From NCBI RefSeq assembly GCF_003918875.1, contig NW_025767105.1:620001-684000 (forward strand): a DNA stretch of 64,000 bases, read 5' to 3'. Position numbers and translations under genes: made by a program. This document shows, in pieces, positions 279 to 56,086 of the stretch (position 1 is the first letter of the stretch; every line of letters begins with the position of its first letter). The notes beneath the pieces were generated by a model, which saw only the letters and a list, made by a program, of their open reading frames with translations, ran no database searches and was not told the origin of the DNA. The stretch comes from Haliotis rubra (Eukaryota).

Positions 279-3200
279 CACCCCAGCAGCCACTGGGACA
301 TCTGCGTCCAGCGACGCCCCAGCACAGCTAGCCGCAAGTGCATTACCCCAGTCAGCCATACAGTCAGCAGAGAGCTCCCTTGTCACAGGCCAGGAATATG
401 AGAACATGGTGATGGAGATGATGAACATGGGCTTTGACCGGGAGATGGTGGTGCAGGCACTCAGGGCTAGCTTCAACAACCCGGATAGAGCTGTAGAGTA
501 TCTGCTAGGGGTGAGTTGGGATTGGGGACACTGTTGTCTGTTGGGGATGGATTGATGGGCATGAGCATTTCATTCTGCAGAGTTACGTCCCCTTAGACAT
601 ACCAGAAACTAATCTGAGAGTCATGCTGATAACTCTTTTTGGTTATTTGTGCTCTAGGATTTCATTACTTCAGATATTTTCTTCCACATTAAGACAACAC
701 TGTGACAAGATGAATATTGTTTTTGGCATAATAAAAACTGAAGTTACTTACTTTCAATCTCAGTAGGGTTACTGTTGAGGACATATTCCCTAAGGTCACT
801 GTTGTTATCTTAGTGCAATATATGTCCTCATGGATCATTAGTTTGACTGATATGTAGTCAACACATCTACTGAGGCTGTATAACAAAACTCCTCACTGTG
901 ATAAATCATGAACTTGTGCTCAACTCAGGGAGATTAATCAGGTAGATCTGGGGCGGTGGGGTAGTCTAGTGGTTAAAGCGTTGGCTCGTCACGCCGAAGA
1001 CCCGGGTTCGAATCCCCACATGGGTACAATGAGTGAAGCCCATTTCTGGTGTCCCCCGCCAGTGATATTGCTGGAATATTGCTAAAAGCGGCGTAAAACC
1101 AAACTCAGTCAGTCAGTCAGGTAGATCTTATGCAGTGGGATGGAATGTACTCCATAATGTCATATGTTCTCAGTACATCATGACTGTAATCAGTTGTGTG
1201 ATGCAGATATGCACATGATTACAAATTTGATTTTCATTACACTGTGTCATGCTGATGGCTGCAGATGCAATCAATGCAAATATTCTTGTATGTGTTTACT
1301 TGTTGAGACATTCATGCCTTGCTGCTTGTTGTTTTAGGGTATTCCTGCAACACCAGTTGCTGTGGTTGATGACCCCCTCCAGCTCAGCCTGCCCCTGCCC
1401 CACCTGCAGCCACCACCGGTGCTCCACCCCCCACACAAGCTGCACCCCCTGCAGGTACCCCCCCTGTACAAGGCCCGGCTCAGGGGACAGGCTCCACCCC
1501 AGCCAGTGCTGCTCCTGTAGGAGGCAATGGTAATTTTTTTATTCTTAGCTCTGATGCCTTTTGTTAAATTTATGGGCCGCAAGTTGTGCTCATTGAAGTT
1601 GTTATGGCTCACCAAAGTCAGTGCTTTGTGAAGCTATCTAATATGATGTGAATGTTATATCCCATATTATTCCCATGTTCATGTATTGATATATTGAGGA
1701 AAAGTATTTACATATATAAAACTTGAGGAGATAACAGGAAGTTTTAAACTGTTGATATGCCTACATGAAATGTTTGACGGTCTCTGACTGTAGTCTTTGA
1801 CTCTGACGTACCCTACACCTTGCCACTAAAATGGTGTCATGGAAGCAAACTGGAATCAATTCTGTCATTCTGATTATATTTTTCAAATTTATATATTTTT
1901 ACTCAGCTTCCTGAGTAAAAATGCTGCATGTATATGTATAGGTCATCTTGTATGGAATGGAATCTAGGAACACTGTTATGTATATGTATTTATTCATGGG
2001 TTTAGGTTACTGAATATGAATTGTTCTCCTGTCTCATTCTACAACAATGGAATGTCATGACAGGTGTTGTGTTTATAACATATTGTGTGACAACCTTTCT
2101 GTCCACCTTGCATATTTCTCTACAGTAAGGTATAATGTTACAGCCCTTACAGAATGAGAGTCATTCACTCTTACATGAATATGAAACAAACAAAAACGTC
2201 TTTACTTTCTTTAAAAATACTGCATATAGTCTTCTCTCCTCATCTGTGTGAGGGGCGGAGGGGTAGCCTAGTGGTTAAAGCGTTCGCTCGTCACGGTGAA
2301 GGCCCAGGTTCGATTCCCCACATGGGTACAATGTGTGAAGCCCATTTCTGGTGTTCCCCCACCGTGATATTGCTGACATATTGCTAAAAGCGGTGTAAAA
2401 CTAAACACACTCATCTGTGTGAACTATAGTCATTCTACTAGGGCTGCTTCACTATACCTTACTTTTGAACAAAAGAAATACTTAGCCTTCCTGTCTCTCT
2501 GCCTGCTTGTATGTAGTCCTAGTAATTAGTAATCCATTATGTTATGCTTTCAGCTGGAGACCCATTATCATTTTTACGCTTACAACCCCAGTTTCGGCGG
2601 ATGCGAGAAGCTATTCAAGAAAATCCTCAGTTACTCCCAGTTTTGTTACAGCAAATTGGTCAGACAAATCCTACTCTTTTAGCAGTAAGTATATCTCACT
2701 CAAATACAGATAGTGTGTAGGCCCCTGACTCGGGAGCTGATTGGGCCTCAGCAGCTCAGTGTTTCCTGTACTTGTAAACTTAATGGCTTGGATGGTTATG
2801 GTAGGGCATCATTGTAAACGTAATGGATTGGATGGTCATGTTATTGTACCTCAACGATGTAGATCGCAGCTCACAGTGTCAATCCCCGTACCAACATTGC
2901 TAGCAGAAGGGTGTGAAATGGTTTGTTAGTAGTATACCCAGAATCCGTGGAACTTTGTTATCTTCCCCTATTTCTTTACCGGATGATATTTCCCATTCTG
3001 TTTGTCTGCATCACTAAAATGGAGTGAATCAGATTGCAAACCCCAATAGTGACATCAATCCAACAGTTGATTTTTTGTGGTCAAATGAATAACTGGCTCA
3101 TACATCCACCTGGTAATCCTGCAGAAGTGGATTAATGGTATTTTGAGAGATCCCTAGAGTTTACAGAGTTGATGGTGACAGTTTACTTGACACAGAGGTT

Positions 3201-4033
3201 GTGACATGTGACTTTTTATTTCAGCTAATTAATCAGAATCAGGAGCGCTTTGTAGACATGTTAAATGAGCCACTCGACGATGAAGCAGCGGAGCCCCAGG
3301 GGGCTGGGGCAGGGAGCGGCCAGGGTTATATACACGTCACACCGCAGGAAAAAGAGGCAATTGAGAGGGTAGGTTGTTGTACAGTGTTGTCAACTTATGA
3401 GTGAATGAGCTGACAAATGAGGATCAGATGGTCTCAATGTGTGTTCAGGCTGGTTGATTGTGTATTATGTATTGCATGATCATTCACACTGGATAACTGT
3501 TAGGTGACAAGCCTGGCTATTGTTAGTTGATATAATTGTCATTGTCACTCTGTAATAGTTCATTAAGGTATGTGTTTGATGTCTTGCAAAAAATACCCTG
3601 GACTCATTTGAGAGCATAGCTTAATTGGACTAGTTGTGTCAATATCGCAGCCCCTCCTATCTCCTATCTCTAACCACAGAGGTTTTTGTTATCCTTGTAG
3701 CTAACGCAAGTCTTAAGAGGATTGTTTGGTCAGTGACTGATTGAGTATTGTATGGGCCATGTGGATTGTTGCTCGTACTCTCTGTCACTGGCTTGACTTT
3801 GCAGGTCCCTGTGATATAGATGGAATATTGTTTACTGAATGTTAGCAACATCTTCTCAATTACTTCACTCTTATTATTAGTTAATCCTCTGTTTTCTTCA
3901 TTCACAGTTGAAAGCATTGGGATTCCCTGAAACATTGGTTGTTCAAGCATACTTTGCCTGTGACAAGAATGAGGAGCTTGCTGCTAACTTTTTGTTAACC
4001 CAAACATTGGATGATGAAGAGCAGCAAAGTTGA
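279..4033 (+). CDS. RAD23: UV excision repair protein RAD23 homolog (HR23A/B-like), 3' part; UBL-encoding 5' exons lie upstream of the window
   Basis: Exons with AG/GT borders: 279-510 (UBA1, [43 protein letters not shown]), 1338-1529 (Pro/Ala linker; needs one more C in the run at 1373-1377), 2554-2684 (XPC-binding/STI1, [38 protein letters not shown]), 3225-3368 ([16 protein letters not shown]...[14 protein letters not shown]), 3908-4033 (UBA2, [30 protein letters not shown]..., TGA). Confidence 0.96.
950..1116 (+). mobile_element. tRNA-derived SINE, family A
   Basis: A box (tagtctagtgg), B box (gttcgaatcc), (cagt)n tail, 12-bp TSD tcaggtagatct at 938-949 and 1117-1128. Confidence 0.9.
2252..2409 (+). 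mobile_element. tRNA-derived SINE, family A
   Basis: Same consensus as 950-1116; TSD ctcatctgtgtga at 2239-2251 and 2410-2422. Confidence 0.9.
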
Positions 4034-4417
4034 TCATTTTAAACAAAGACAATTGGGATAATTTCCCCAACAGTTATACACATGTAAAGAAAATCTTGGG
4101 ACTTTAAAGGAAATCATAAGCCCTGTGGAAGATGGTGAAAGTGGTGTCCGTTTTCTTGCATGGATGTACTATCCATAGTTTTGAGAAGGCGATGATTGTA
4201 TGAAATGCTGAAAGATTTTATGCCTGCCCTGAAAATAAATGTGCATACCATAGTTGGTCTCGATATAAACTCTTGCTCTATCCACCCATCGCAAATATGT
4301 ACAAACTGATGGTGACATTTACTGATGGAGACGTGAGTTGGAAATTGTACTAACCAAAGTCATAGTTATCTAGGTTGCTTAGTGACCAACTCTGCAATTG
4401 GTTAGTCACTGTTCCAA
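3616..4417 (+). repeat. 802-bp direct duplication, copy 1
   Basis: atagcttaattggactag...gtcactgttccaa matches 5708-6509; the only differences seen are two T-run length changes. Confidence 0.93.
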
Positions 4418-5707
4418 ACACCATACATGGCCGACCTGGAAGAGAAGGCCCTAGAAACTGCACCCTTCAAACCGGGTCCCTGCTGGTACCGCCCAAAGTG
4501 GATGACACCTTTCGTCGTCCTCCAACCTCAGCAAGATCCAAAGCAGCTCCTCGCCATCTCAACAGCCAACATCCCTCGCATCAAATTCACCATTGAAACA
4601 GAGCAGAACAACCAACTACCTTTCCTTGATGTCCTGTGTCCCGCACCTCCTCCAACCAACTCCAGACCTCCGTGTACAGAAAACCAACTCATAATGGATC
4701 AATACATCCACTACAACTCCAACCACCCACCTAAAGTCAAGACCGGGCGTCATCTCTACATTGACCAGAAGAGCCAAAAACATCTGCTCAACAAACCTAC
4801 AGGAAGAAATTGAACACCTGAGGAAAGTCTTTGTGGAACGCAGCCACTACCCACCTGGAAATAGTCAACAGAACCATCGAAGCAACGCTTTCACCTCCTG
4901 CCAAAAGGTCTAAACCAGAATCAGCCCCCATCAAGATATCCATTCCCTACATTGGTAAACCATCACACCAAATCAGCCGACTCCTGAAACAACAGGCAGG
5001 AATAGACACTACCTTCTCGGCGTCCTCCAGCCTCAACAACCTCCTCCATGCCAACGGAAGAAAACAACCCACCGTCCAACAACAACAACCCGAAATGTTT
5101 ATTTACAAATAGACTGTGATTGTGGACAATGCTACATAGGTGAAACATCCCACCCATCAACACCCGAGTCAAAGAACATCAGCACCTCTGTTGCTAATTC
5201 CACACCAAATCAGCTATCTCTGACCACATCAAAGCTAACCCCAATCATCAAATAGAGTGGTCCGACATCACCATTCTCGCCAACAACCAAACGGACTTCA
5301 CTAAACATAAGCTCACAGAAGCCATTCACATCAAACGCCACAAGCCTACCATCAACCGTGACCAAGGATACTTCATTCCATCTGCTTATGATCCACTCCT
5401 CCACCAAGCCCAGTCTATTGTATAAACATCGCATCCATTGTATAAACATCTCATTGTAACTACATCTCTGGCTTCCACTCACTATCCTTTATGTACTTAC
5501 TGGCTTCATCAGCTTACTGCTTAGCCAATCATGGCAATTATGTTGTTTCCTTTGTCTATTATGTTGTTTCATTGTTATATACAGTATATATATGCAGCTC
5601 CTACACTTCATGTACCACTCTTGCTTGACAACGGTACAAGAATCTGTATCGAACGTCGATGACTCAATGAAAAATAAAGAAGTTGTTATCCATAAAACTT
5701 GTTATAT
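4418..5707 (+). mobile_element. 5'-truncated Penelope-like retroelement (RT C-terminus, GIY-YIG endonuclease, pLTR), frameshifted
   Basis: Motifs across frames: MADLEEKAL, VDDTF, IKFTIETEQNNQLPFLDV, SVYRKPTH, YIHYNSNHP, ISIPYIG, IYKIDCDCGQCYIGETS...RVKEH (GIY-YIG), EAIHI...INRDQG. The 3' end has a hammerhead-like motif and AATAAA. Confidence 0.92.
5621..5660 (+). ncRNA. Degenerate minimal hammerhead ribozyme in the Penelope pLTR
   Basis: UUGACAA core (U3-A8 in place of C3-G8), stem II ggtaca/tgtatc, then GAAC-GUC (one A short of GAAAC); stem I is weak. Confidence 0.5.
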
Positions 5708-6509
5708 ATAGCTTAATTGGACTAGTTGTGTCAATATCGCAGCCCCTCCTATCTCCTATCTCTAACCACAGAGGTTTTGTTATCCTTTGTAGCTAACGCA
5801 AGTCTTAAGAGGATTGTTTGGTCAGTGACTGATTGAGTATTGTATGGGCCATGTGGATTGTTGCTCGTACTCTCTGTCACTGGCTTGACTTTGCAGGTCC
5901 CTGTGATATAGATGGAATATTGTTTACTGAATGTTAGCAACATCTTCTCAATTACTTCACTCTTATTATTAGTTAATCCTCTGTTTTCTTCATTCACAGT
6001 TGAAAGCATTGGGATTCCCTGAAACATTGGTTGTTCAAGCATACTTTGCCTGTGACAAGAATGAGGAGCTTGCTGCTAACTTTTTGTTAACCCAAACATT
6101 GGATGATGAAGAGCAGCAAAGTTGATCATTTTAAACAAAGACAATTGGGATAATTTCCCCAACAGTTATACACATGTAAAGAAAATCTTGGGACTTTAAA
6201 GGAAATCATAAGCCCTGTGGAAGATGGTGAAAGTGGTGTCCGTTTTCTTGCATGGATGTACTATCCATAGTTTTGAGAAGGCGATGATTGTATGAAATGC
6301 TGAAAGATTTTATGCCTGCCCTGAAAATAAATGTGCATACCATAGTTGGTCTCGATATAAACTCTTGCTCTATCCACCCATCGCAAATATGTACAAACTG
6401 ATGGTGACATTTACTGATGGAGACGTGAGTTGGAAATTGTACTAACCAAAGTCATAGTTATCTAGGTTGCTTAGTGACCAACTCTGCAATTGGTTAGTCA
6501 CTGTTCCAA
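5708..6509 (+). repeat. 802-bp direct duplication, copy 2
   Basis: Matches 3616-4417 and continues into unique RAD23 3' UTR. Confidence 0.93.
6000..6125 (+). CDS. RAD23: Second identical copy of the RAD23 terminal (UBA2) coding exon
   Basis: Same sequence as 3908-4033 at offset 2092, with intact ttcacag acceptor and TGA; lies inside the 5708-6509 duplicate. Confidence 0.85.
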
Positions 6510-8779
6510 CTGCACCATTCGTTCAGTTGATGTAATAATGTTGCAGATTTTCATTAAGATGTGGAGCAGTGTGCACAGTATTTGATTCTGTTTGATGTTC
6601 TTGCTAAGCATAACAAATTTTTACTCCAGGTATTTATGGCGCATAAATTCTTCACGTAACGAAATATTACGAAGCCACAATTTGCTGAAAGTATTTTGTG
6701 ATTGTCTGCAAACCTCAGGATTCGTGCTGCAGTTCACGCCAAGTCTTAGACAAACATTACACTGCTTTTTGATACTATGGATACTCAACAACTGATGGTA
6801 GATTTTGTCTACAGCAATCAACCATGCTTACTGCACTGTGACCTCAGACTCTTTGCACCACATTTACCCTGTATGGAGCAACATCACTGACTGCATCTGG
6901 ATGTTAGTGTTATCAATGATATATTATGGACCAAGAATTGCTGTATTTCAAAATTTTAAATTATATATGGCAGTACATTTTTTTCAGTTATTACACATTT
7001 TTTTCCAATTGACTCAAACATCCACTGTACAGATATTTAGAAAGGTTTCTCTGAAATATCATGGTATATATAAGTTGGTTACAATTTGTATGTTCTGACA
7101 ACCAATCTACTGATGTCAGTTAAAGCTTCTGTAAATCTCTTTCAGTTGTTAAGCCAGAGGCAGTAAACATACATGTCACTGTGCACTGTCCCTGCATGTA
7201 TTCTACATTCTATTGTGTGCCTTGGACAGTCAGTGTTGTCTGTATGCACCACATGTTCACAAACACTGTTTCAATCAGGGAACCAAGCTTCCTAGTGTGC
7301 TATATCTCACATATCAGTTAATTTATTTTAAAATGGTAGCAGGAAGATGTAATTGAGAAATACTTGTTGAAGCTGGTAATGATGAGAATGCTGATTGGCG
7401 TAGCCACAAATTGTCTGATGTCATGTTAAATCAGTGAGAATTTGGACACAGTGTTACATGGTGTTCACAAGATGTAAAAGGAAAGGACATGAAGATGTGT
7501 CGGGTGTGCCTTTTCTGTTGGGTTCCATCACAACATTGTTTTGACAACATCACTTTATTGTCACAAGTTTAGGTGTTTCAGGGGAGAGCACTCTGAAAAC
7601 TGATTGAACAGTGGCTTTAGTTTAAGTAATTATTTAATTGGTTAGTATTTTCCATTGGCTCTTGCATTCCATTCATGGGATTGATTATTAACGGATAAAC
7701 ATGAAAATTTGATACTCCTTGTGTTTTATTTCTTTTTGTCATTAAATGATGAAAGGTGTGATTCTGATTCTAATAAACGATCTTGTTGTTGATGTCCATA
7801 GTACTCTCAAAGCCTTGAAAATTAGCAGATGCTACAAAAATCCCTGCTAAAATTTTATGAATAAACTGTTTATTCAACTATGTAGTTGTTGATTTCATTT
7901 ACATGGATTAGCAACCATTGTCCAAGATGGGAGTGACAAGAGGCATCTTGAATAAACCGATTCTTGAAGCTTTTTGCAAGTTGAACTCAGTTCTCAGCCT
8001 AAATAAAAATATATTGAATAACCATTCTATATAGATAATGTTATGTAGTAAGTAAATGTTAGTTTAGATAGGTTTCTTTCAGTTTGCAGTTCAATAACTT
8101 AATTTAAAAGAAAGGTTTGTAGGCACCATAGTATGTCCATGGGTTTCACCATAGAGGTGAAAATCAGACCTGCAGCTCTTCAGGCTTCCTTTCCACATCA
8201 TGATTGGTGTTTAAGTGAAACAGTTACCAGAGCAGAGTGAGGTCTAACTTTGTCAAAAGAACCATTTTAGTTTACTCAAGAATACAGTTACCAAAGTATA
8301 TGGTTAGGATAGCTTGGTGCTTGCTTCACTGATTTATTGATAGGTCATATCTATGGTCAGAATAATACCTTGTTAGAAAGGATATCTGGAGAACGTTCGT
8401 GGGAAAAGAGTATTTGGGACAGAACCATGGATGGTCAGTACTTTCCAAGCGCCTTTCACGTGCCTTTTCAGAAGTGTCTAATGTGTAAGGTTTCATAGAA
8501 TAATCCTGCTCTTGTAGGGATAGCCCAGTTTAAGGTTAGATGAATGCTGTGTCAGAGATGAAGTTTCTAGCTGGGATGTGAAGGTGGGTTTGAGTCCATT
8601 TTTGCACAGATCATAAAGGTTCAGAGGTTTACATGGAATGAACTGCACACTAGTGTTTATTGTAGACATTGCATTATGTCAGTGTATTTTTATTGTATGA
8701 TGTATATTGCATATCTCCATAAGATGAGTAAACTGAACACAGTAATTTGTTGGGACAAGCCAGTAAAAGAAGCAGGAGT

Positions 8780-10148: not shown

Positions 10149-10793
10149 TTATTCGGCGTAGACAGCATACACTATCCCCGTGGCGTGGATGTTGCCTTGG
10201 GTGACGTGCGTCGTGGTATAATTGTCATATCTCTGGTCCCACAGACACCGAGACGAGAACTGCATGCTCTGTGATCCTTTCTCGCCGATCATCACAAAAC
10301 AGACGAACTTGAATCTCTTCATCTCCAGCTTCTTCACCTGTTCCAGGATCTTGTTGCTCAGCATCATACTCTTGGTCTTCATGGCACCACACTCGTACAC
10401 GTTCTCCGTGATGTGGTCCTTCAGAACGGCCCTGATAATCTGCTTCACTTCTCCCTCCTTGAACCTGGCGTCTGGCTCCATCTTGTACGTGTTCTCGTAC
10501 ATGATCATGGGGTGGTGGTGATCGTCCGTGACCACGCTGTGGCGGTCGTGGTCCCTCACATGCTTGTCTCGGTTGCTGGCGATGGAGTGGGCAGTGTCCT
10601 TGCGGCCGAACGTCCCCGCCCTTGGTCTGCCCCCTGTCATACCTGTCTGAACCGGGTTGATGGTAGCGCCCCGAAGGGTCGGATGTTTGTCCTTGGAATG
10701 GTGGTCCGTGGAGTGGTGGTCTTTGCCGTGGTGGTGGTCCTTCTCTGACCTGCCATGATGGCTGCTGCGGTGTTCGGCCTTGACCTCGCTCAT
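10149..10793 (-). CDS. Tctex1 domain-containing protein (dynein light chain Tctex-type, TCTEX1D1/DYNLT5-like), 214 aa
   Basis: Tctex-1 domain YENTYKMEP...EVKQIIRAVL...RFKFVCFVMIGEKGSQSMQFSSRCLWDQRYDNY...ATGIVYAVYAE*. A splice acceptor (tttgtttcag) at 10806 lies 12 nt before the ATG. His-rich N-terminus. Confidence 0.9.
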   Translation of the reverse strand: MSEVKAEHRSSHHGRSEKDHHHGKDHHSTDHHSKDKHPTLRGATINPVQTGMTGGRPRAGTFGRKDTAHSIASNRDKHVRDHDRHSVVTDDHHHPMIMYENTYKMEPDARFKEGEVKQIIRAVLKDHITENVYECGAMKTKSMMLSNKILEQVKKLEMKRFKFVCFVMIGEKGSQSMQFSSRCLWDQRYDNYTTTHVTQGNIHATGIVYAVYAE

Positions 10794-10897
10794 CGTGGAT
10801 CGCTCCTGAAACAAAATCAAAGATGCTAACAAGATGATGAATGGTTTCTGATTTTCAGATTGTCTATAAGCATATAACAATTTGATACTTTGATAAT

Positions 10898-12040
10898 ACA
10901 CTCAGGGGCAAAAGAAATTGTGCGAAACAAGAAGTGACGATATTTTAAAAGACGAGACAAGACGGTTGAGAAATTAAAGTTTTTTTTTTATAATTGATAT
11001 TTTATTTTGCTTCCCCTGTTACAGATAGGGCCGAAGAGCTAGGGGACTCTAAGGTCCTTTGCAAGAAGGTTCATTGATCACAGGAAAAACAGGATTTTTT
11101 TCTAACAAAGCACAAAACAACAACACCAGACACCACAACACATTCACTCACCAATCACACTTACAAGCTTCAAATATTTACAGTAAGTTTAAGTTCAAGT
11201 CCATTCAGCCTATATTTTTCATTAGGGAACAAGAAGAAAGAATTCAGAAAATCATTTAAAATTTGCAAAATCATGATATAACATCCACTTTTTATAAAAC
11301 TTATCTTGTTCACTTTTACTGAAGGATATATTTTTTTCAATAAAATACCTATCTTGTAAATAATGTCTAAAATGTTTAAAACTAAGAGTAGTTTTTAATA
11401 CCTTACATTTATATATGAAGAATTTAGCTAACAACAATATTAAATCAAACACATCATCAGTATATACATTTGTTCTCATTCCAAACACAATAAGTTGCAG
11501 GTCCAATTTCATGTTGTGAACATGTTGACATTTTTCATTCAATAATTCTAGAAAACATTTCCAAAAAGTTTGCACATGTTCACAATACCAAAACAAGTGG
11601 GAGATTGTTTCAACCTCACATTGACAAAAGGTACATAAGTTGCTTTCAGCTAAGTTGATCTTAAATAGAAATGAATTAGTTGCGAGAATGCCATGTATAA
11701 TCCTGAACTGAAACCATTGAAGTTTAGTATCCCTTGTAGTCTTTACAGGTTTTAAAAATATTTTTTCCAATTCAAGTTCAGCAAGCATACAATCCTCCCA
11801 CGAGAAATTAAAGTTGGCATTGCCAGCTTCCACAAGCTCAAAACAAAAACCTGTGCACAACATCATTTGACGAACATGTGATTAACATATAGTAAAATAA
11901 AAAATAATAATAAATTTTGCGTTTGTATTGAATATTTCATGAATAAACAAAATCGACATTCTTATTATCTCCTATATGTTTTTGGACACAGAAATATTTT
12001 TAAAATTAAGAACATCTGTTTCCTTTTTTTCGAAGAGTGT
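10898..12040. mobile_element. Tc1/mariner-type non-autonomous element that hosts the LINE fragment
   Basis: Left end ta-cactc...aaaagaaa and right end gtttcctttttttcgaagagtgt are loose TIRs, resembling the left end of the Tc1 at 57059. Confidence 0.45.
10982..11801 (-). mobile_element. 5'-truncated L1/Tx1-like LINE (ORF2 C-terminal zinc knuckle, 3' UTR, poly(A))
   Basis: LQWFQFRIIHGILATN...CTFCQCEVETISHLFWYC (zf-RVT); AATAAA and A-tail on the minus strand; 14-bp TSD gagaaattaaagtt at 10968-10981 and 11802-11815. Confidence 0.9.
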
Positions 12041-16105: not shown

Positions 16106-17721
16106 CTTCCTGTTTGATTTTAAACTTCAGCTCTTTACTATGGTACTTGGTACTTCTGCTTCAGTAGAATGAAATGCCACCTGCATTCATATCCCCGGCA
16201 GATCTGTGTATGATCATGTTATTAATAGCTTCAGAATGCTGTCCAGGAATAACACTTTAGATGGCAATGAACCGCTAATCTCCCCCACTGTCCGCCTCAA
16301 GTGATTTGATTTGGCTAATATTGACTCTCACTCGTGCACTTCTGTATTTCGGCAGCAATGAGACGTCGTTCAAATATCTGTAGACGCTGTCTGAGACGTC
16401 TAGATCAACACATTGACATGTATGGCAGTTGTCAGGGTCAACAAGTGAGATACAACATAAGGACATATATCGTCATGGACTGGGTCTGGTGTCACAACTG
16501 GTGGTTGGTTGAACAAAGTACTGGAACTCACGACGTTTATTCAAGATGACCCGCTTTGTTTTGTATTGGAATATATAACCACCAAGTTAGCTTTTAATAT
16601 AGTGTGATCGCTTTGATGTGAGGGAGCACAATGCGCTCAACGTGATATACTTAAACTTTAATGGACACAGTTGTCTCCAGACACTGCCATGTACAGTGTA
16701 ATAGCATTCGGGATGAGTGTAGTATGTATAACCGTCACAAAAACAGAAATAAATGCTTTCGACATGACTGCTTAAGGAGCGTTCAGCTTACTGGACCATG
16801 AATCTGAAACTTGAATTACATTGCTGTGTCTGTGATCAATTTTCCTTTCACACGTAAGAACATTCTATTTCACCATTGCAGCCAATGTCAAACATTTTGA
16901 AAATAATTCAATGTCGTGAATCGAGTAAAACAACGTCAGTCTTTAGTAGATAAGTAGTCATGACGTCAGATTTACATTCAGCTCATTACATTCAGATCAG
17001 CACCATATTGATTCGTGCATATTACAACAAGGAAAAATATTTGCGCTATCTTTCGGTCATATTTTGTATGGTGAAATGTCCTTCCCAATCATTTCCTAGC
17101 AAGCAATAATGGATCGCTTTATATGACATCCAGAAGTCCTAACTTATCTAACGCAAGAAAGCCTATAGTTACACCGCCCATAATTCATGTTTAGCCCAGG
17201 AATACATATATCAACACCGTTACGGCTATTAACATGACATGACAAGTATAGGGCACTTATGGCATGTATCGGATAGATAAGGTCGGTGGATACCCGTAAC
17301 AGAAACAATACAACATGCTATGTCCACATCGGCTATCGGTTGTCCAGGCGGGTGTGTTAGGTGGGGCAGAAGTGGGTCGCTGGGTCACTGATACACGACA
17401 GCCTATGATTAGCCATGAAGAACCCTATTCCATGCAATACACCCCATAAACCGTCACATCGAGTGCTCAAACCGTTCAAACTTATGAACCTGCATATATT
17501 CAGAAGAACATGATATACAATATATTTTATTTTTCAAAACGTCATTCTATCATTCTATAGTCCCGATGCTAGACAAAGGTGGTTTATGTTATAACAATAT
17601 ATTTGTCTCAGTTCAATCAATACAAATAGCGATATAGATAAACATACAATAAATATTATTGAGCTACGGTTGTCTGTTGATTGGGTGTAAGTAGTTGAAC
17701 CTGGATCAGGCAAACGAGTGA

Positions 17722-17885
17722 GTGAGTGAGTTTGGTTTACGCCGCTTTAGCAATATTCCAACAAGATCACGGCGGGGGACACCAGAAATGGGCTTCACAC
17801 ATTGTACCCATGTGGAGAATCGAACCCGGGTCTTCGGCCTGACGAGCGAACGCCTTAACCACTAGGCTACCCCACTGCTCCCTGA
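17722..17885 (-). mobile_element. tRNA-derived SINE, family A
   Basis: Reverse-complement match to family A; caaacgagtgagtgag repeated on both flanks. Confidence 0.88.
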
Positions 17886-20800
17886 CAAACGAGTGAGTGA
17901 GGACATGAAGTATGTTCCACTAATCAGGGATCAATGGAAGATCGAAACCTCATTCATCCGGTACCGAATCCTGGTGGTTACAGAGACCTGGGTTCGATTC
18001 CCCATTGTTTAAGTTTATTATCTTTTCCCTGTCGTGATATGGCTTGATGTTTACAAACAGCGGCGTAAAAGCATACTCACTCACTCACAAAATCAATGAG
18101 AATGTGTTGGTGTGGTGCTTGACGCCACAGTAAGCAATATTCAAGTGATGTGAGATGACCTATAGATAAATGTGGATCACGCAAACCAGTGACTGATACA
18201 ATGAACAACGATCCAAGTTGTCGTGGCACGTTGATATGATGTCAACCAAATCACCGAGCCTGACCGAACTTTTGTCGTCACTTATGATACAGATGGGAAA
18301 GAATGTTGCGCCATGAACATACAGTGGATAGAAGTGTATGGATGGGTCCTGTAGACGTATTTCAATCCAGAATACAAGTGAGGGGTGGGGGGACAGGTAT
18401 GAAGTATGGATCAAGACAAGGATCCTTACGATAGTTGTAACTAATGGTGTTTCCTAGTCACACCTGTTTCTAACTGTCTAAACGCACAATATTTCAGATA
18501 ACAACAATTTATTGTTTTTTTCCCTTAACACAGAAGTGGGAAATTGCCTGACTGGGTCATTTGAGGTCATTATCCCGTCTGATGTAAACAATTTATCTTG
18601 AAGATCTTAGTAACCCGATGCGTACAAGCAAACACACCGGAACTGGCTCTAGAGCTTGACGCGAAGTCGACATACCTGATTGCATCGACGTATACAAATA
18701 CATTGCGTGTCGGCATGGCAGTAATCTGTGCATCTATACAAAATACACGATAAAGATCGACTCAGTCGGCAAAAAGTAGTTACAATGGGGAAACAGCGAT
18801 AACGAGGGGCAAGACTTTACAGTGATGAATAACGCCGACATAGGAGAACTGCCTATGTGAGGTTGTAATGCCTTTACACATATAATTCCGCTGGGATAAT
18901 TATACCACTTAATTAACAATACAATTCAAAAGATTTTGTGTACTTAATAATAATACTAAACACATTGGAATTCATTTCACTTGGCGCAGAACTGAAGCGA
19001 TTATGTTCATAGTTACTGATTTGTCAACCCAAGTGAGTGAGTGAGCGCGCGAGTGAGTGAGTAAGTGGAAATTATAAAACATATATATTTCAGATACTAG
19101 TATATCCCGATGTGTCAGCTGAATTTCTGAAGAAGTCATGCAAATCCTAGAATATATATTGATATCGGTAAGGCAACTGAATGAAAGTAGAAATATACAT
19201 GTTAATAGCATTGAGACTGGAAAACAACCCTATTATTGAACTGTAAAATATCACCGCATACGAATAAAACTACAACATTCAAACATGGTATGTGATATTT
19301 GACTAATGACAAATATATAAGCATGTCGCATCATGATTAACCGCCAATATTCGAATTTTCATTCACAGTGTTATTGATAACTAAAAACAGCTTTATCTGA
19401 AAATGAATGATATAATTAATAAATATATGAAACAAAATAACACAGAACATTATAAAGAATAATTATTGTAAGCATCACATTATTAATGGAGAGGAAAATG
19501 TCTTTGTTATAAGGAACAGTTGAACAGTTTGAACTCACCTCTCCAAGCGAGCCTATATCTACCAGCTCTTAACACGGCAGTAAACAGCGGCTGTGTTGGA
19601 TTTCACCAGTTTGTTTTTTGATTGTTTTGAGAAGTAAAGCCTCCCTGGTAACACAATCTCAGGTGGAACTCGACTGAGGGGTGGCTGCTCGGCGCTTGTG
19701 AAGACATTTATAATATTTCTCGACTGTTGGGCTGCGACAAGGCGCTGTGATAGGCCGCTCACTGTTATCAGCACTCGCTCAAAGCGCTATTGTACCTGTT
19801 CGATAATTAAAGGCGTACTCCCTCTGGTATATTTGCAGGACTTGGTGGCTGCTTAGAAGTCTTTGTGGAATCCATAAAGGCCTTATTAGCTCATGATTTT
19901 TATTTTATCGCATTCTAAGCGTTATTTATTAGCAGTTAAACCACGACAGCAACTATATGTTTACTCGTGTTTATATGCACTTCTTGTATTTTGTTATAGG
20001 TGTGGTAATGTTGTTGTTCCAACATGGAGCTGGAATGTTGATGTTACAGATGACAACGCTACAGCTGTGGATCCGTGACCTGTAGCGGGACCAGACCAAC
20101 CAATGATTGATAGCAAGACCAACAACCACGTCAACGGACTATACTGAAATATAAGAAGCCAGGTCCTTCATTGTTTCCCTATTTCAATCAGCTGAAGTAC
20201 ACAGGGTACTTGTGACCTTATCAACACAACAATTGCCTGGAAATCATAACAAACATACTTTTTTCACTTCTGTAACACAATTTATGTCCTCGTGTGGACT
20301 CCAAGCCAGAGTAAACCCCCGTGTACCATACTTGTCATGAGAGTCGACTTGGAATCGGGTGGCCAGTGGGAGTGTTCTGACTGATCGTGCCATCGCCCCC
20401 ACGGAAAGTCTCGTCAGTTGCTCATGTTATCAGCCCGTTCAAAGCGACCTTAGTGATAAGATTATCGTAACTCGTAATACTTAACAAGGGCTTACGGCAA
20501 TCGTAGCGCTAAGATCGCTCTGTGGAACGGGCACACGGCCTAGATTTTCGAAACAATCTTAAAGCTAAGATCGGAAAGTTTCCATATTGTATCTTTGGGC
20601 GTAAGTGGTAAAGATTAATCTTGAAATCACATCGAAAATCTATGCCTGGTAATCTGTTGGCCCAGGCTCAATATAGAACTTGCAGAAAATCATGAGTTGA
20701 CACATTGCTCACTGCAACATAAAACAACATTCACTCGTTCCATGTGCTTCATACTGTGTATCTTGGCAACTAATCTGCTGATTTATTACTAGCAGCGACG

Positions 20801-23907: not shown

Positions 23908-24083
23908 AGTGAGTGAGTGAGTGAATGAGTATGGTTTTACGCCGCTTATAGCATCATTCCAGCAATATCACGGCCGGGGACAACAAAAATGGGCTTCACA
24001 CATTGTACCCATAAAGGGAATCGAAGCCCGGTCTTCGGCGTGACGAGCGAACGCTTTAACCACGAGGCTACCCCACCGCCCCA
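23908..24083 (-). mobile_element. tRNA-derived SINE, family A (a second partial copy lies at 23730-23835)
   Basis: Reverse-complement match to the consensus, with (gagt)n tail. Confidence 0.85.
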
Positions 24084-24747: not shown

Positions 24748-27700
24748 ATGCTTGTACAGAGGCCGACATCAACAGACAAGCCATCCACGTTTCAGTACAT
24801 CAAATGGGTAAGACACTCTGCTGCAACACGCAGAGAAGTGAGTGCTAGCCTGTGTTATGAGGGGCGTAGGGGTAGCCTAGTGGTTAAAGCGTTGGCTCGT
24901 CACGCAGAAGACCTCGGTTCGATTCCCCTCAAATGTGAAGCCCATTTCTGGTCCCCCGCCGTGATATTGCTGGAATATTGCTAACAGCGGCATAAAACTA
25001 AACTCACTTAGTCACGCTGTGTAATGAATCATACCGAAATATTTGAAACACGTCTGTAACTTAATAAAAACGTCATGGAAACGAGCTAAAGTTGCATTTA
25101 AATGCCAATGGCGAGTCAGTGCAGATAGAAGTATGTTGTGAAGAAATCTACCAATTAACAATCTGATCACGAAAGTATATTATTGGTGTTTGGTGTTTCT
25201 CAGCTGTTGACGTGCGGGATGACTTCATACCAACAGAACACGAACACCCTTGAAGAAAGTCAGGTACTACACCTTTCTTACTTGCAGCTGACTGTTATCT
25301 TAATGCTACTTGTAGATATGTAGATACTTATACTAGTAAGATAATACTTCCTTAACTTTTAGATGTATTTTTCAATATATACTAGGCGTCATTAATAAAG
25401 GGTCAAATGATATATAGCTAATGTAAAGAAAAGTTTCTCAGAAATAATAGAACTAAGAGCGTCATCATAATTTTAATGTGTTGACAAACGTAACACATCG
25501 TGACATACAGACAAAAAGTTCAAACAGCTCCAGCAAACATCAGTTATACAGAATAACACACCACAATGAAAATGACAAACATGAAGGAATCGGTCATTCT
25601 ATATCGTGTGTACCCTCCTCGCGCGTCCAAGACACAGGTACACCTTGTTCTTATGCTCCGTATCAAATTCATAAAGAAAGTTTGCGGAACCGCATTCCAT
25701 TCCTCTACTAGAGCTCTGCGGAGTCCTGGGAGATCCACTGGTGCTGGGTGACGTGTGTACACGTCGACCGAGTTCATCCCAGGCATGCTCAATTGGGTAG
25801 AGGTCTGGTGAGCATGCTGGCCACTCCATCCGCTCTACACCCTGCTGCCTAAGGAATTCCGTGACAATCCTGGCCTAGCGTTGTCGTCTTGCAGTAAAGA
25901 GGGTCGACCATGAAAGCCTTGCATAGCTTGCAGTAATGGTACTGCTATAGGAGCCAGAATCTCGCCCCTATAACGCTGTCCTGTAAGATTACCGTCGACC
26001 ACGTGCAGTGGAGGACATCCAGTAGGATTTATCCCTGCCCAAACCATGACCGACCCCCACCAAATCGGTTATGGGTGGCCACAGTTGCATCTGTGATTCG
26101 CTCTCCATTGCGACGATAAATCCTCTGCCAACCATCATGGAAGGACAAATTGAATCTGATTTCATCTGTGAAGAGCACACGAGACCATTGACATTGATTC
26201 CAGCGGCCATGATGTCTACTCCATCTCAAACGCGCCTGCCTGTGACGTGGTGGACAAACTGCAGGTCGAGTGCAGCGGATCGACGAACGCTGCTTCTGGG
26301 CATTGTTAACATTGAAGTGTTCTGTCTGAAGATCTGATGAGTTAAAGAATCTGTTACGTAACGCAGTTTTAATCATGTGCCTATAATCTCGGACTGTTGT
26401 GACTCTGGGGCATACATATTCCACGGACCCACTGGCTTGAAATCTCTGCAAGAGTCTACCAATAGCACTCTGACTCACATAAAAGCGGACAGCAACCTGC
26501 CGCTGAGTTTGACCAGATTCCAAAAGGCCTACAGAAAGTGTAAAGGAACCGCGTCTCATTTCAAACAGGTAACTGAACAGTGAATGGCAGTGAAAAAGCA
26601 TCCATGTATTGTCCCCACTTTCCATGGATAGAGCGACATGCACGTGCAAATCATTAACGTTAAGTGGCAAGTGGATTTACATATTGACAATTTGAATAAA
26701 GAATGTGCCATTTGTAACAATGTATCGGACGTTAAAGAACGTAATAATGACATTTCAACGGCTTGATGTGTTTTCCATACTGTTAAGAAGTTTGTAAAAC
26801 AGTCAGTTGTATATATTTCAAATAAAAACGAAGATTTTACATCTTTTAAGAAATAGTGTTACCAATAGCTTGACCCTTCATTAATGACGCCGAGTATAGA
26901 TACTTTGAGATATTTGCACTGAGGTTAAAGATTAAATTTGCACTAAAGACACTATAAGACAGACCATAAGGTTAGTATCAGCCCTATAAAACTGCAAATT
27001 ATATATTCACTTTTGAAGTAGCATTGTTGTGCCGCTCAGTGACGGATAGTGGATACACGAGTCAGTTTTATATTTCTTACAACACTGATCTGTAGTAGTG
27101 TGCTCATTTGTCGACGGCGAGGAGATTTTTTTTAAATAAGATAATACTTTATTCCTTAGATAACAGATAATATATCGTCTTCTGCGGTGTAGCAATATTT
27201 TGGTATTAGATAACAAATCATTAAAATCATAACACAGTCAATGAGGGAACGCCAAAGCAGAAGCGTTTGTTACGTCTTCCGAAACGAGTCAAAATTCTAC
27301 AACATGATATAATAATCGATGTTGTTATTTGATTTTTGTATTCCTAAAAAGATGTTCCGAGGACCGACTGATCAAAATGCTGTGATTTACACAAATGTTC
27401 TCTTTTCAAAACCGTTTCGTTTTAACTATTCCAGAAATACATTTAAAATTTGAAATGGGAATAGTCACACCTTTATCAGGACATCACCGACTGGTCAGTG
27501 TTTGTTGTATACTATAGACTGCTGTTGTATTGCTGGTCCGGTGGGGTCACTGATAACATGGAATAATAATCCAGGCATTCAAGGATGAAGATGAAATGGA
27601 CGAGCTGGCCGCTGTAGCACAAGACGCGGGGATGGTGGAAGTGTCATTGACCGATACACCTACCCACCCTGCCCCTGTCTCCAGAGGTATGAATACAAGA

Positions 27701-29142: not shown

Positions 29143-29805
29143 TAAGTAAAAGTATATTTGCTACACCTCAGCAGGTCAAGTAAAAGTATACTTGCTACAC
29201 CTCAGGAGGTCAAGTAAAAGTATATTTGCTACACCTAAGGAGGTCAAGTAAAAGTATATTTGCTACACCTAAGGAGGTCAAGTAAAAGTATATTTGCTAC
29301 ACCTCAGGAGGTCAAGTAAAAGTATATTTGCTACACCTCAGGAGGTCAAGTAAAAGTATATTTGCTACACCTAGGAGGTTGCTACACCTAAGGAGGTCAA
29401 GTAAAAGTATATTTGCTACACCTAAGGAGGTCAAGTAAAAGAATATTTGCTACACCTCAGGAGGTCAAGTAAAAGAATATTTGCTACACCTCACGAGGTC
29501 AAGTAAAAGTATATTTGCTACACCTCAGGAGGTCAAGTAAAAGTATATTTGCTACACCTAAGGAGGTCAAGTAAAAATATATTTGCTACACCTCACGAGG
29601 TCAAGTAAAAGTATATTTGCTACACCTGAGAGTAAAGTATAAAGGTCAAGTTATGCACATACAAGTAAAAGTATATTTGCCTCAGGAGGTCAAGTAAAAG
29701 TATATTTACTACACCTCGTAAAAAAGTATATTTGACATACACCTCAGGAGATCAAGTAAAAGTATATTTGCTACACCTCAGGAGATAGTAAAAGTATATT
29801 TACTT
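29143..29805. repeat. 34-bp minisatellite, ~19 copies
   Basis: Unit aggtcaagtaaaagtatatttgctacacctcagg, degrading toward the right end. Confidence 0.95.
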
Positions 29806-32116: not shown

Positions 32117-35100
32117 ATGTCTGATGATGAAGAAATTCCTGACCTTGTTCTATCAGAAGCAAAGAAAGTTCCCATCACAATCATAACAGGATTTCTAGGT
32201 AAGATCACTAAGAACTAAGGAGGTGCTAGATTTGATCTCCTATCATTGGTTAAGAAGTAAAATGTTTGTGAAAACCGATCAGTAATTTGAATTATTTCTT
32301 TTTTCAACAGTCATTTTGTGACATGCAGATAGATCTCTTAAAACAAGCACTAGCACTGACTTCATATCATTGTACCTCAACAGAGTAAATCAGTCTGGTT
32401 GGTTATTCACAAACTGCCTTGATATAGCTGAAGTATAGCTGACTGTGGCATTAAATGATTGATCAGCATAAAAATATCCATAACACTGTTGGTGCAATAT
32501 AAGGCCTCCCGCGAGACTGGATAGTCACGCATGGTGACTGGATAGTCCACGATAGCCGGTGTGTCAAGATTTGCTGTTTATTTAAAAATTAACAAATTAT
32601 TAGGGCATATTTGAACAGTGACACTAGCAATTTTAAAGTTATTTCCACCCTGACAACCACAATCATCAAATTCTCATCCAATTTATGTGGATAATTATCA
32701 CCCTGCTGCTTACCTGTATTGGGAGTTTTGTCGGATGTTAAACAATCCTCCCAAACTATCTTCATGCCTTAGATCAAATTGTTGGAACCCTGTTGGTATT
32801 CCAGTACCCCATGCTAAAGCACCAACTAAAACGAGGATAAGGGGGACACAATGTGTGACCTGGTTGTGTTTGTGTCATGTTAAGGTTTGCTCATGCTATC
32901 TACCATCAGCGTGTCAGACCCAGACTATTTGCAGGCTGATGGGATATAGCTGGAATATTGCTGTGTCTTAACGTAACACCTGTATAGTTGTAAAGAAACT
33001 TCTGTTTGTTGGTAAAGTAACTCCTGTTTGTTGGTAAAGTAACTTCTGTTTGTTGGTAAAGTAACTCCTGTTTGTTGGTAAAGTAACTTCTGTTTGTTTG
33101 GTAAAGTAACTCCTGTTTGTTGGTCAAGTAGTCCTGTTTGTTGGTCAACTCCTGTTTGTTGGTAAAGTAACTCCTGCTTTGTTGGTAAAGTAACTCCTGT
33201 TTGTTGGTAAAGTAACTCCTGTTTGTTGGTAAAGTAACTCCTGTTTGTTGGTAAAGTAACTCCTGTTTGTTGGTAAAGTAACTCCTGTTTGTTGGTAAAG
33301 TAACTCCTGTTTGTTGGTAAAGTTCCTGTTTGTTGGTAAAGTAACTCCTGTTTGTTGGTCAAGTAACTCCTGTTTGTTGGTAAAGTAACTCCTGTTTGTT
33401 GGTGTAACTGGTAAAAGTAACTAACTCCTGTTTGTTGGTCAAGTAACTTGTTGGTAAAGTAACTCCTGTTTGTTGGTAAAGTAACTCCTGTTTGTTGGTA
33501 AAGTAACTCCTGTTTGTTGGTAAAGTAACTCCTGTTTGTTGGTAAAGTAACTCCTGTTTGTTTCCAGGTGCAGGGAAGACAACTCTGCTCAACTATGTTC
33601 TCACAGAACAACATGGGAAGAAGATTGCTGTCATTCTGAATGAGTTCGGGGAAGGTTAGAGGGAATCAATGTCTGGAAATATTCATAACAATCAAGAGTT
33701 CCTTCAACAAAACACAATTGTTTGTTTTGAAGATATATGCATTTTCCATTTATTATGTATCTTTTGCATCTTAACCCCTGAATATCAACACGCATACATG
33801 CCACTGGACTGCCAGTCAGATTAGATATTGTGTGCAGAGACCCACCTTTGTATTTATAAAGGTTTTGGGCATACAGGAAAACGTGTCTGTTTAGAGTTAA
33901 GAAAACACAGGGTGCAATTGTTACTTCTAAGGCATACATTGCATAAAGTGGCTGTTGTACTGAATGAGTGCAAGTCCTTGGATGTTCCCCAGGGAGCTGA
34001 GATTGCAGTTTTAATGAACACTGATGCTGCCACTGGTATAATGCATATTAAAATGTCATGTGCTTTGAACATTAGTTGTTTTATGTGTAGTCTTGTGTTC
34101 ATATTATGATAACTTTTCACATATAATGATTGCAGGAGACTCCATTGAGAAGTCTATGTCTGTTGGCCAGCAGGGGGAGCTGTTTGAAGAATGGCTGGAG
34201 TTGAGGAATGGTTGCCTGTGCTGTTCTGTCAAGTAAGTTAATGTCTACTGTTCTATCAAGGAAGTTGGTCTGTGAAGTAGGATGGTCTGTGTTTCTTCTG
34301 TCAAGGAAGTTGGTCTGTGAAGTAAGATGGTCTGTGTTTCTTCTGTCAAGGAAGTTGGTCTGTGAAGTAAGATGGTCTGTGTTTCTTCTGTCAAGGAAGT
34401 TGGTCTGTGAAGTAAGATGGTCTGTGTTTCTTCTGTGAAGGAAGTTGGTCTGTGAAGTAAGATGGTCTGTGTTTCTTCTGTCAAGGAAGTTGGTCTGTGA
34501 AGTAAGATGGTCTGTGTTTCTTCTGTCAAGGAAGTTGGTCTGTGAAGTAAGATGATCTGTGTTTCTTCTGTCAAGGAAGTTGGTCTGTGAAGTAAGATGG
34601 TCTGTGTTTCTTCTGTCAAGGAAGTTGGTCTGTGAAGTAAGATGGTCTGTGTTTCTTCTGTCAAGGAAGTTGGTCTGTGAAGTAGGATGGTCTGTGTTTC
34701 TTCTGTCAAGGAAGTTGGTCTGTGAAGTAGGATGGTCTGTGTTTCTTCTGTCAAGGAAGTTGGTCTGTGAAGTAAGATGGTCTGTGTTTCTTCTGTCAAG
34801 GAAGTTGGTCTGTGAAGTAAGATGGTCTGTGTTTCTTCTGTCAAGGAAGTTGGTCTGTGGAGTAAGATGATCTGTGTTTCTTCTGTCAAGTAATGGAGAG
34901 ACTGTTTTATATTCTGGGTGGCAGTCCTAAACATGGGTTATTGGAAGACATAGAATATTCCACTCAAACTCAACATGTTTTCTCATAAACCATTTACCAG
35001 GACCTGCAGCATCTCCAGCAAAAAGTAGCCTCTCTTTTCGTACATCTTGGAGTTTTTTTAGTAGAATAATGAAGTGAATTTTGTGAAGTGAGTCATCTTG

Positions 35101-38100: not shown

Positions 38101-40631
38101 ATTTGTGTTATGTTGGTTACAGTACATCATACCTGAATCTTTTAAATAAACAAAACAAGTACTTGTATGTCTTTCGTCTTGAATTCAGTTTATCTTGTAA
38201 GATTTAACAATGTTATTTACCTAAAGAAAATAAGTTCAATTGAAATTAAACAAACACATGTACTATATCGATATGTTTCGTCTTGAATTCAGTTTATCTT
38301 GTAAGATTTAACAATGTTATTTGCCTAAAGAAAATAAGTTCAACTGAAATTAAACAAACACATGTACTATATCGATATGTTTCGTCTTGAATTCAGTTTA
38401 TCTTGTAAGATTTAACAATGTTATTTACCTAAAGAAAATAAGTTCAACTGAAATTAAACAAACACATGTACTATATCGATATGTTTCGTCTTGAATTCAG
38501 TTTATCTTGTAAGATTTAACAATGTTATTTACCTAAAGAAAATAAGTTCAACTGAAATTAAACAAACACATGTACTATATCGATATATGTTTTAGGCCTT
38601 TGAATTCAGTTTATCTTGTAAGATTTAACAATGTTATTTACCTAAAGAAAATTCAACTGAAATTAAACAAACACATGTACTATATCGATATGTTTCGTCT
38701 TGAATTCAGTTTATCTTGTAAGATTTAACAATGTTATTTACCTAAAGAAAATAAGTTCAACTGAAATTAAACAAACACATGTACTATATCAATATGTTTA
38801 GATCTTGAATTCAGTTTATCTTGTAAGATTTAACAATGTTATTTACCTAAAGAAAATAAGTTCAACTGAAATTAAACAAACACATGTAAATATCGATATG
38901 TTTAGGTCTTGAATTCAGTTTATCTTGTAAGATTTAACAATGTTATTTACCTAAAGAAAATAAGTTCAACTGAAATTAAACAAACACATGTACTATATCG
39001 ATATGTTTCGTCTTGAATTCAGTTTATCTTGTAAGATTTAACAATGTTATTTACCTAAAGAAAATAAGTTCAACTGAAATTAAACAAACACATGTACTAT
39101 ATCGATATGTTTCTTCTTGAATTCAGTTTATCTTGTAATTCAATGTTATTTACCTAAAGAAAATAAGTTCAACTGAAATTAAACAAACACATGTACTATA
39201 TCGATATGTTTCGTCTTGAATTCAGTTTATCTTGTAAGATTTAACAATGTTATTTACCTAAAGAAAATAAGTTCAACTGAAATTAAACAAACACATGTAC
39301 TATATCGATATGTTTTGTGAGGTTTATGTCACCAGCGCTTGCAGAAAACATTGCCGAGATACTTTGACCAATTACTGTTAACGAAGGTGAAACATTCTCT
39401 GCTTACCGATATATGTAAATGATTACTTGACATGGAAACTAAGTGCAATACCCTGTGTTTGGTTTACCCTTTAACAGTTTTAGACATGTGCACACAAGGG
39501 ATCCCCTCATACTCATGTCAGCTGACGTGTGTCGTGATATTGATAACAGTTGTAATTAGTGAAGGACTCTAACGGTGATTCAGGTTTTGTTTGATTTGTT
39601 TCCAGCAACTCAGGGAACAGAAGGAAGATGGGGCCATTAATGAAGCTCAAAGGTAGAAATTTAAAAGGGAAAATTATTCCAAGCTAATATGATAAAACAA
39701 TTTAGTACAGGGTTCGAAATACCCCATGTATTAGCGTGCCATGGCACAGTAAATTTTGAAATGGCACGGATAAAAAATGTTTTCGGTGCCCTTATGGCAC
39801 GCCTAATTTTTTAGAGACATAACTCACCTTCAGTCATTTAATCCCCAAAACAAAACACTTACGCAAATGACAAACAAGCAAAATCATTTATTGACTTTAT
39901 CGCCCAGGAAATCACTGGAATTATGATTGATGATGTAAAGAAATATGGGTGTTTTTCCATTTAGAGTGATGGGAGTACTGATAATTCGGTTATTGAAGAG
40001 GAAATTGTGCATGCTAGATATATTGAAAAAGTGAACCTGTCACAAAATTCTTTGCTATCAAAGGTCTTGGGAAAGCAGAACAAATGCATATGAAGCTCAA
40101 AAAAGCCATCTTAAACAGAAGACATGGGGTGCGGTGGGCGAGCTGGCTAAGGCGCCAGGCTAGTGATCCAGCGAGGTTGAGGTGTTGGGATTGAGCCCAC
40201 CTGTGGCCGGGTGTAAAAACCTTGGAGTCAACTTTGTGTTCAGACTCTTTCAGTGTTGTCACAACCCCTAGTGTACAGTACACAACCCTGTGCACTTAAA
40301 AGAACCCACGAATCTGTTGGTATTTGATCAGATGGTGGCCACATGAATACGTGCAAACACCTAGTTGCGGGTACAGCAATGTGCAGTGAACATGGACAAA
40401 GTACTGTGACTATGTGTCCCAGTCCACCCAGCTGTGAATGGGTACCTCGTTAGGATGAGAAAGCCACAATAACTCGGTGCGCCTAGTGGCTGCAAGAGTT
40501 GTATACTCCCCAGGGAGTTGAGATTGATAATGCGATGTGCTGTTGAGATTGACATCCAATGATCGAGGGAAAAAAACACCAGCGCCTTGCGCATGCACTA
40601 GTGCGTGGATATGTGCGCTATATAAATATCC

Positions 40632-52762: not shown

Positions 52763-52779
52763 AGGCACCAGGTTTTTTC

Positions 52780-55846: not shown

Positions 55847-56086
55847 TACCTATTAAAAGGGGGGGGGGTGGGGGGTGTAGCAGGGATTGGATCATGTGTC
55901 AAGCATGTTACACACCTGGATTATACGATGATGGAGAGAAGATATAGAGACAGAAGTATTATCAGGTAGGTCACAGTTACGATTATCCCTATTATAGATA
56001 CTAACCGAACTCAGGTGGTGGTTGAGTATTGAAAGGGAGTAGTCTCTAATTATTACGGAATTAATCTTAAGGATTGGGAGAATCAA

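Follow-up and report, generated by a model that had tools for sequence, protein, structure and literature searches.

The window analysed here is a 64,000-nucleotide stretch of Haliotis rubra DNA (contig NW_025767105.1, positions 620,001 to 684,000). Near its start lie the last exons of a gene identified as RAD23, since its upstream exons give Pfam UBA and XPC-binding matches. In this part of the gene a Penelope-like element (PLE) stands between two direct copies, A1 and A2, of one 802-bp unit, A. The arrangement, A-PLE-A, is probably a real and polymorphic target-site duplication (TSD) of giant size, made when the element was inserted.

Each copy of A consists of 292 nt of intron end, the last coding exon with its UBA match, and 384 nt of 3' untranslated region (UTR), the content given in the original prediction. 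When the window is compared with itself, A1 and A2 form the single long near-perfect direct repeat (803 columns, 99.75% identity, 2 gaps). There are 0 substitutions between the copies, and both gaps fall in T runs less than 80 nt from the start of the repeat. The predicted pair of copies, differing only in two homopolymers, is therefore present in the assembly (G000). Elsewhere in G000, A has no further match. A second copy of the upstream flank (2600-3630) was also searched for in G000, and none was found beyond its one match.

The direct repeat adjoins both ends of the element, with 6 discordant nucleotides on the 5' side. The element had been expected to fill the space between the copies exactly, and this needs correction: family sequence starts only at 4424, and 4418-4423 do not belong to it. 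The letters ACACCAT found there resemble the continuation of the target, CTGCACCAT, at 6510-6518, of which they are likely a miscall. Given this resemblance, the duplication is probably about 811 bp long, with one T shared. At the other end, the AT at 5708-5709 is compatible with element and target alike. Short-read contigs of public runs help to judge the copies. Those of two DNA samples, X1 and X2, match A1 without a gap, so it is probably A2 that was misread at both homopolymers.

Two other runs, X4 and X7, give spliced contigs and are treated as RNA-like for that reason; no run listed as holding the locus is recorded as RNA. Both contain the GT..AG splice 3368->3908. Contig X7, which has another organism label, extends 1372 nt beyond the end of A, to about 7881 if colinear, just past the AATAAA at 7860. 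Since A2 is continuous into CTGCACCATTCG, the distal exon copy keeps the native long UTR, as predicted. Further AATAAA motifs occur within A (4234) and within the element. The peptide encoded and the acceptor are identical for the two exon copies. Splicing to either copy would yield the same RAD23 protein, with a difference in the 3' UTR alone. X4 and X7 follow only the path of the empty allele, and no transcript of the filled allele was found in their contigs; these samples may not carry that allele. The proposed use of two alternative terminal exons by RAD23 is unsupported.

Table 1. Features of the RAD23 end and the inserted element (positions in the window)
Feature	Positions	Strand	Evidence
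RAD23 penultimate exon: end of XPC-binding domain, linker, start of UBA2	3226..3368	+	Pfam XPC-binding; X4 and X7 cover 3225-3367
Copy A1: intron end, last exon, 384 nt of 3' UTR	3616..4417	+	self-comparison; gap-free against contigs X1 and X2
RAD23 last coding exon, proximal: 41 aa and stop	3908..4033	+	Pfam UBA E=1.7e-10; splice joint 3368->3908
Junction letters ACACCAT, last T common to element	4418..4424	+	outside family; likely miscalled target CTGCACCAT (=6510-6518), miscall inferred
5'-truncated PLE: C-terminal part of reverse transcriptase (RT), GIY-YIG, 3' UTR/pLTR part; no-tail 3' end; frameshifted as assembled	4424..5709	+	family comparison, relative L034
Minimal hammerhead-like motif, U3-A8 core variant, with helix II	5624..5660	+	pattern; window copy one A of GAAA short
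AATAAA inside element (candidate poly(A) signal)	5673..5678	+	sequence
Copy A2, probably to 6518, continuous with native downstream UTR	5708..6509	+	self-comparison; X1, X2, X4 and X7 run from A end into CTGCACCATTCG
RAD23 last coding exon, distal: identical peptide, own acceptor AG at 5998-5999	6000..6125	+	sequence
Native long 3' UTR, AATAAA at 7860	6510..7881	+	spliced contig X7

By sequence comparison, the insert is a copy of a young endonuclease-positive (EN+) Penelope-like family with a predicted RT and C-terminal GIY-YIG in one open reading frame (ORF). Out of 1811 candidates 40 were scored, giving 64 matches, and a 31-nt end motif of the family occurs 255 times in G000. One relative, L034 (3964-6213), has a 749-aa open frame with a Pfam RVT_1 match (E=4e-8). 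Its residues 560-749 score 0.96 to clusters with GIY-YIG (12-21% of members) and HTH_animal. Pfam gave no GIY-YIG call of its own on the L034 frame, and the window copy, whose five frames are broken, had no match. Of the diagnostic motifs, the L034 protein by eye contains DKG, and a CxxC linker was not seen. Twenty-one other family copies are 99.1% alike mutually (median), and the window copy is 96.4% alike to them. With copies about 99% alike, the family has been active recently.

Family copies have characteristic ends. An inverted 5' copy, giving both orientations, is present at 97/126 family loci, and the window copy is a simple truncation. Family 3' ends either carry a tail (86/197) or lack one (87/197), with 24/197 of other kinds. 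The 3' end in the window, which adjoins A2, belongs to the no-tail group and to the same exact class as 27/197. Inverted 5' copies and an optional tail are among the hallmarks of PLEs described in PMC8557442 and PMC11167929. The optional tail has been traced to two internal start sites of the RT (PMC11167929).

The proximal exon copy had been predicted to lead into PLE sequence with a hammerhead-like motif and an AATAAA. The motif pattern and the AATAAA at 5673 are both there; the window copy of the motif, as assembled, reads GAAC. In 151/161 family copies the pattern is intact (U3-A8-type core, helix II and GAAAC), and by eye the family motif matches the minimal hammerhead variant shown in PMC4209133. 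An Rfam hammerhead search of the window and of copy L002 found none. A single minimal hammerhead gave no detectable cleavage in vitro (PMC4209133).

The duplication in the window can be compared with the TSDs of related copies. For this comparison 126 other loci, most but not all of the family, were fetched at about 10 kb each: a similarity search supplied 34, no-tail patterns supplied another 34, and 58 were among the initial 100 of the 255 pattern matches. An extra 10 kb per side was taken for 16 loci (6.7 kb on one side of L045), and flank of at least 2.7 kb on one side was available at every locus. L051 (G000:C2185) and L052 (G000:C2163) were counted separately; they have the same element structure and (TA)n flanks, and are probably one locus assembled twice. 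A TSD was called as a shared flank word of at least 9 nt, a lenient rule under which a few short calls may be chance.

Short TSDs were found at 85/126 loci, 41 of them being 12 nt and 66 being 12-14 nt long; 41/126 had none. The length is 9-18 bp at 79/126, and the duplication of about 811 bp in the window falls outside this range. Five calls, of 22, 36, 39 and 71 nt, lie within simple or tandem repeats. The longest copies, about five in number (L034, L035, L041, L044, L050), are all without a short TSD, whereas L160 has one.

A test for the window-like pattern, in which the flanks on the two sides of the element match each other, gave two positives among the 41 loci lacking a short TSD. The original prediction had suggested looking for further PLE copies with long flanking duplications, and one such copy is L210 (L210:3654-7076, G000:C2604). 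It has a left copy of 462 nt and a right copy of 1331 nt, the latter with 870 extra nt. The 416 columns that they share hold 0 substitutions and one 5-nt gap; outside these, the two copies show 3 differences in the first 45 nt. Nowhere else in G000 is the long part found, whereas the first 50 nt resemble a low-copy repeat. The L210 element is inverted, and both of its ends are usual 3' ends, one with a tail and one without.

Other loci resemble this pattern in part. At L041, with L077 and L078 (G000:C335), an inverted element of nearly full length lies in an array of three 4.3-kb units, of which the flanking ones differ by 22 substitutions in 3.4 kb; the locus is ambiguous between a 4.1-kb duplication and a target deletion of about 190 bp. 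At L057 the flanking repeat is one-sided and 95-96% alike. Long flanking duplications are thus outliers, seen at 2/127 loci including the window, or at 3 or 4 with L041 and L057 included. In L138 the 5' end of the element carries an inverted copy of about 400 nt of nearby target DNA (531-919, 3009-3412; 0 substitutions), and L053 has an inverted repeat of about 400 nt of nearby DNA at the element end (1077-1515, 5855-6291; 14 substitutions). A local template switch is possible for both.

Several long flanking repeats were rejected as TSDs. Those of L060, L129, L130, L133, L144, L145, L148, L177, L193, L199, L217 and L220 are satellites, dispersed repeats or arrays, mostly accompanied by a short TSD, and those of L135 and L042 were rejected with the same group. 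The 39-nt repeat of L137 is consistent with a short TSD that lies within a 31-nt tandem.

The empty site, with A present once, was recovered in contigs of X1, X2, X3, X4 and X7. X1 crosses both junction sites in one unbranched contig of 6361 nt and X2 in one of 1644 nt, and both run on into CTGCACCATTCG. X3, which has another organism label, covers A once. An empty allele exists and is single-copy. The filled allele is known from the assembly alone, and the insertion likely lies on an allele that the samples examined do not show. A contig break at 3592-3601 in X2 and X9 was considered as a junction and proved to be a two-base indel bubble; X9 contigs cover little of A.

The body of the insert has a distinctive error profile. 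Compared with copy L002, it shows 31 difference events, of which 18 lie within 2 nt of a CpG (background 11%). This enrichment has p=3e-10 if events are independent, which clustered events are not. Homopolymers hold 17/20 of the indels. Counted per 215 nt, the events number 7, 6, 2, 6, 3 and 7, an even spread with no rise towards the 5' junction. Such a profile presumably comes from native-DNA long reads whose consensus was left unpolished, and neither from ageing nor from a single raw read. Systematic and evenly spread differences fit a multi-read consensus of this kind, not a thinning contig end. Old age as their source is rejected on account of the CpG and homopolymer bias and the 0 substitutions in A. 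The window copy ranks 7th of 86 copies in gap rate, and gaps reach at least 1% in 14/54 family copies with clean short TSDs. Because error-rich bodies are common among such copies, errors by themselves do not mark an artefact. As a separate observation, the CpG-clustered differences in 4424-5707 suggest, from the error pattern, that the element was methylated in the DNA sequenced.

The interpretation of A-PLE-A as a giant TSD starts from its geometry. The usual family 3' end stands at the start of A2 and the truncated 5' end at the end of A1, and target-primed insertion would be expected to leave its 3' junction at the usual end. In X1, X2 and X3 the empty allele is single-copy, so no earlier tandem repeat explains the duplication, and L210 supplies a second case. 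These parts of the predicted target-site-like duplication stand; its junctions are missing from the X1 and X2 contigs.

A possible course of insertion can be outlined. The GIY-YIG endonuclease would nick the bottom strand at AT (3616-3617), and reverse transcription, primed there at the no-tail internal start site of the family, would stop after about 1.29 kb. The top strand would be opened about 811 nt further on rather than about 12 nt. This could happen through a distant nick, as proposed for L1 (PMC5223499), or through invasion of nearby target by the end of the cDNA, at which L138 may hint. The top strand would then join the cDNA through 1 nt of microhomology (T, or possibly ATT if the T run is miscalled). 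Gap filling would copy what lies between, from the intron end through the last exon to the beginning of the UTR. L210 may represent an inverted version, with both distant ends primed at normal start sites. On AT-rich targets the PAc protein makes cuts in both strands and extends them, and it begins synthesis at two sites within the RNA (PMC11167929).

Several observations weigh against a giant TSD. Only 1/126 other loci, L210, shows the pattern clearly, and it comes from the same assembly as the window. Its copies differ by the 870-nt indel, and one L210 element half is error-rich too. The 5' junction in the window is an arbitrary truncation point, as an assembly join would also give. Neither junction is held by any X1 or X2 contig, and neither a loose end at 3616 nor a piece bridging 4417-4424 was present among the pieces listed. 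Small allele bubbles survive in X2 (depth 3 and 5), which makes it likely that X2 lacks the insertion; in X1 alleles are merged, so X1 cannot show absence. Finally, errors persist 10-80 nt from both junctions, as if uncorrected by short reads spanning them.

Some of these points would follow from an assembly artefact, in which a heterozygous insertion at 3616 with a short TSD was joined behind the empty haplotype, or insertions on two haplotypes were merged. In the first case A would be present twice because the empty haplotype contributes the upstream flank with A, and the insertion haplotype then contributes part of the element with A. Such an origin is unlikely, though a real chance remains attached to it. 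Besides the missing junctions and the errors beside them, it would suit L129, L133 and L177, which lie in kb-scale repeats with the element in one unit only and can signal haplotype duplication, and also L210 and L057, whose copies differ by indels as alleles would. However, the 5' junction shows neither N nor an error gradient, and G000 contains no leftover haplotig carrying the upstream flank. An arbitrary join would not give L210 its two usual 3' ends, and chance double insertion is rare, with about 0.02 pairs of independent insertions within 1 kb expected genome-wide by a rough estimate. Absence from contigs is weak evidence here, since contigs drop alleles.

The same final sequence could be produced in two steps, by an ordinary insertion at 3616 followed by an event that links the end of A on the empty homolog to the element interior, either microhomology-mediated exchange or a replication template switch. 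That 41/126 loci are without a short TSD, some with rearranged flanks (L053, L138), is in keeping with such a course. It would nevertheless require that a very young insertion had been followed, less than 1 kb away, by another rare event, and A1 and A2 show no allelic substitution, although single-nucleotide polymorphisms are sparse here; this history appears quite improbable. Least credible is insertion into an older tandem duplication with deletion of the spacer, for which there is hardly any chance: A occurs once in contigs from two organism labels, and its copies carry 0 substitutions. The three 4.3-kb units of L041 are open to the same interpretation.

Read as a giant TSD, the locus can be compared with known systems. 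The family shares with other EN+ PLEs (Penelope/Poseidon type; PAc of Anolis, PMC11167929; Adineta Pen families, PMC3846280) a single ORF with RT and C-terminal GIY-YIG, 5' truncation, inverted 5' copies and an optional tail of 30-40 nt. AT-rich targets and short TSDs are likewise common to them, and so perhaps, judged by pattern, is a minimal hammerhead-like motif. The TSDs described in PMC3846280 are 8-10 bp or absent, whereas that of the window is about 811 bp; the clade placement (Penelope/Poseidon versus Neptune) is tentative.

An example of long target duplications is the LINE (long interspersed element) Dualen-4b of Chlamydomonas, which duplicates target on both sides of a non-LTR insert, with a median of 900 bp (PMC9977147). 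There more than half of the insertions are affected and a dual RLE and APE nuclease is proposed; in the present family the share is about 1-3% of loci, the nuclease is a single GIY-YIG one, and de novo evidence is absent. Another example is L1 in HeLa cells, where TSDs over 100 bp occur sporadically, in at most 10% of events (PMC5223499). In cells deficient in nucleotide excision repair (NER) the median L1 TSD is 1495 bp; the same paper ascribes long TSDs to a distant second nick and notes that large ones can duplicate exons (PMC5223499). L1 differs in its APE nuclease, its poly(A) tail and its study in cell culture, whereas the present case is an endogenous PLE known from an assembly. As far as tested, it is by coincidence that the target gene here, RAD23, also belongs to NER. 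The rotifer non-LTR element R9 also makes a long TSD (126 bp, as cited in PMC9977147), of fixed length and at a specific site, whereas the window copy is an outlier from a 12-bp norm. In the literature searched, from which subscription papers and supplements were left out, no report of a long TSD of a PLE was found. Long duplications are already known for LINEs and are apparently new for PLEs.

The rest of the window contains further genes and repeats. As predicted, other retroelements in it have short TSDs: two of about 12 bp, belonging to short interspersed elements (SINEs), lie at 938/1117 and about 2240/2410. The two SINE copies concerned lie in RAD23 introns, and their TSDs equal the PLE family norm in length. 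This tRNA-like SINE family is found at 950-1126 and 2252-2413, and for example at 17716-17889, 23914-24083, 37313-37484, 43014-43181 and 45105-45263. Tail to tail with RAD23 is a single-frame gene of the Tctex-1 family on the minus strand (10149-10901; Pfam E=7.5e-23) with a His-rich N-terminus. It is followed at 11252-11881 (minus strand) by a LINE 3' fragment (zf-RVT, E=2.4e-8). A fragment at 26029-26676 (minus strand) is, by eye, presumably from a Tc1/mariner-like transposase; Pfam gives it only a weak MarR_2 helix-turn-helix match. Minisatellite arrays cluster at 29144-29804, 32969-33563, 34222-34893, 35241-36519, 38144-39318 and 41981-42601. From about 50700 to 56850 there is the remnant of a DIRS-like retrotransposon, with an RNase H match (E=6e-7), a weak tyrosine-recombinase match (E=0.008) and short inverted repeats at 56464-56833.

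If A-PLE-A is an artefact, it shows that heterozygous PLE sites call for caution when an assembly is built from long reads. If it is a giant TSD, a broader suggestion can be made, which is tentative and somewhat more doubtful than even: the second-strand step of PLE insertion may be fat-tailed, such that about 1-3% of insertions have their target-primed ends 0.5-4 kb apart and not 12 bp, including inverted insertions of the L210 type. The cutting and joining steps of the second strand have yet to be validated, according to PMC11167929. A sharp 12-bp norm with rare outliers of 0.5-1.3 kb, of which one has normal start sites at both ends, would put limits on that step, and in vitro work with PAc could then test the spacing of the two GIY-YIG cuts as a variable. 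The effect on RAD23 itself is likely small, with the same protein and an altered 3' UTR on one allele. PLEs would join the elements that make exon-size duplications, and tandem duplications on the scale of an exon, such as that of the last RAD23 exon here, would arise from them directly and be inherited.

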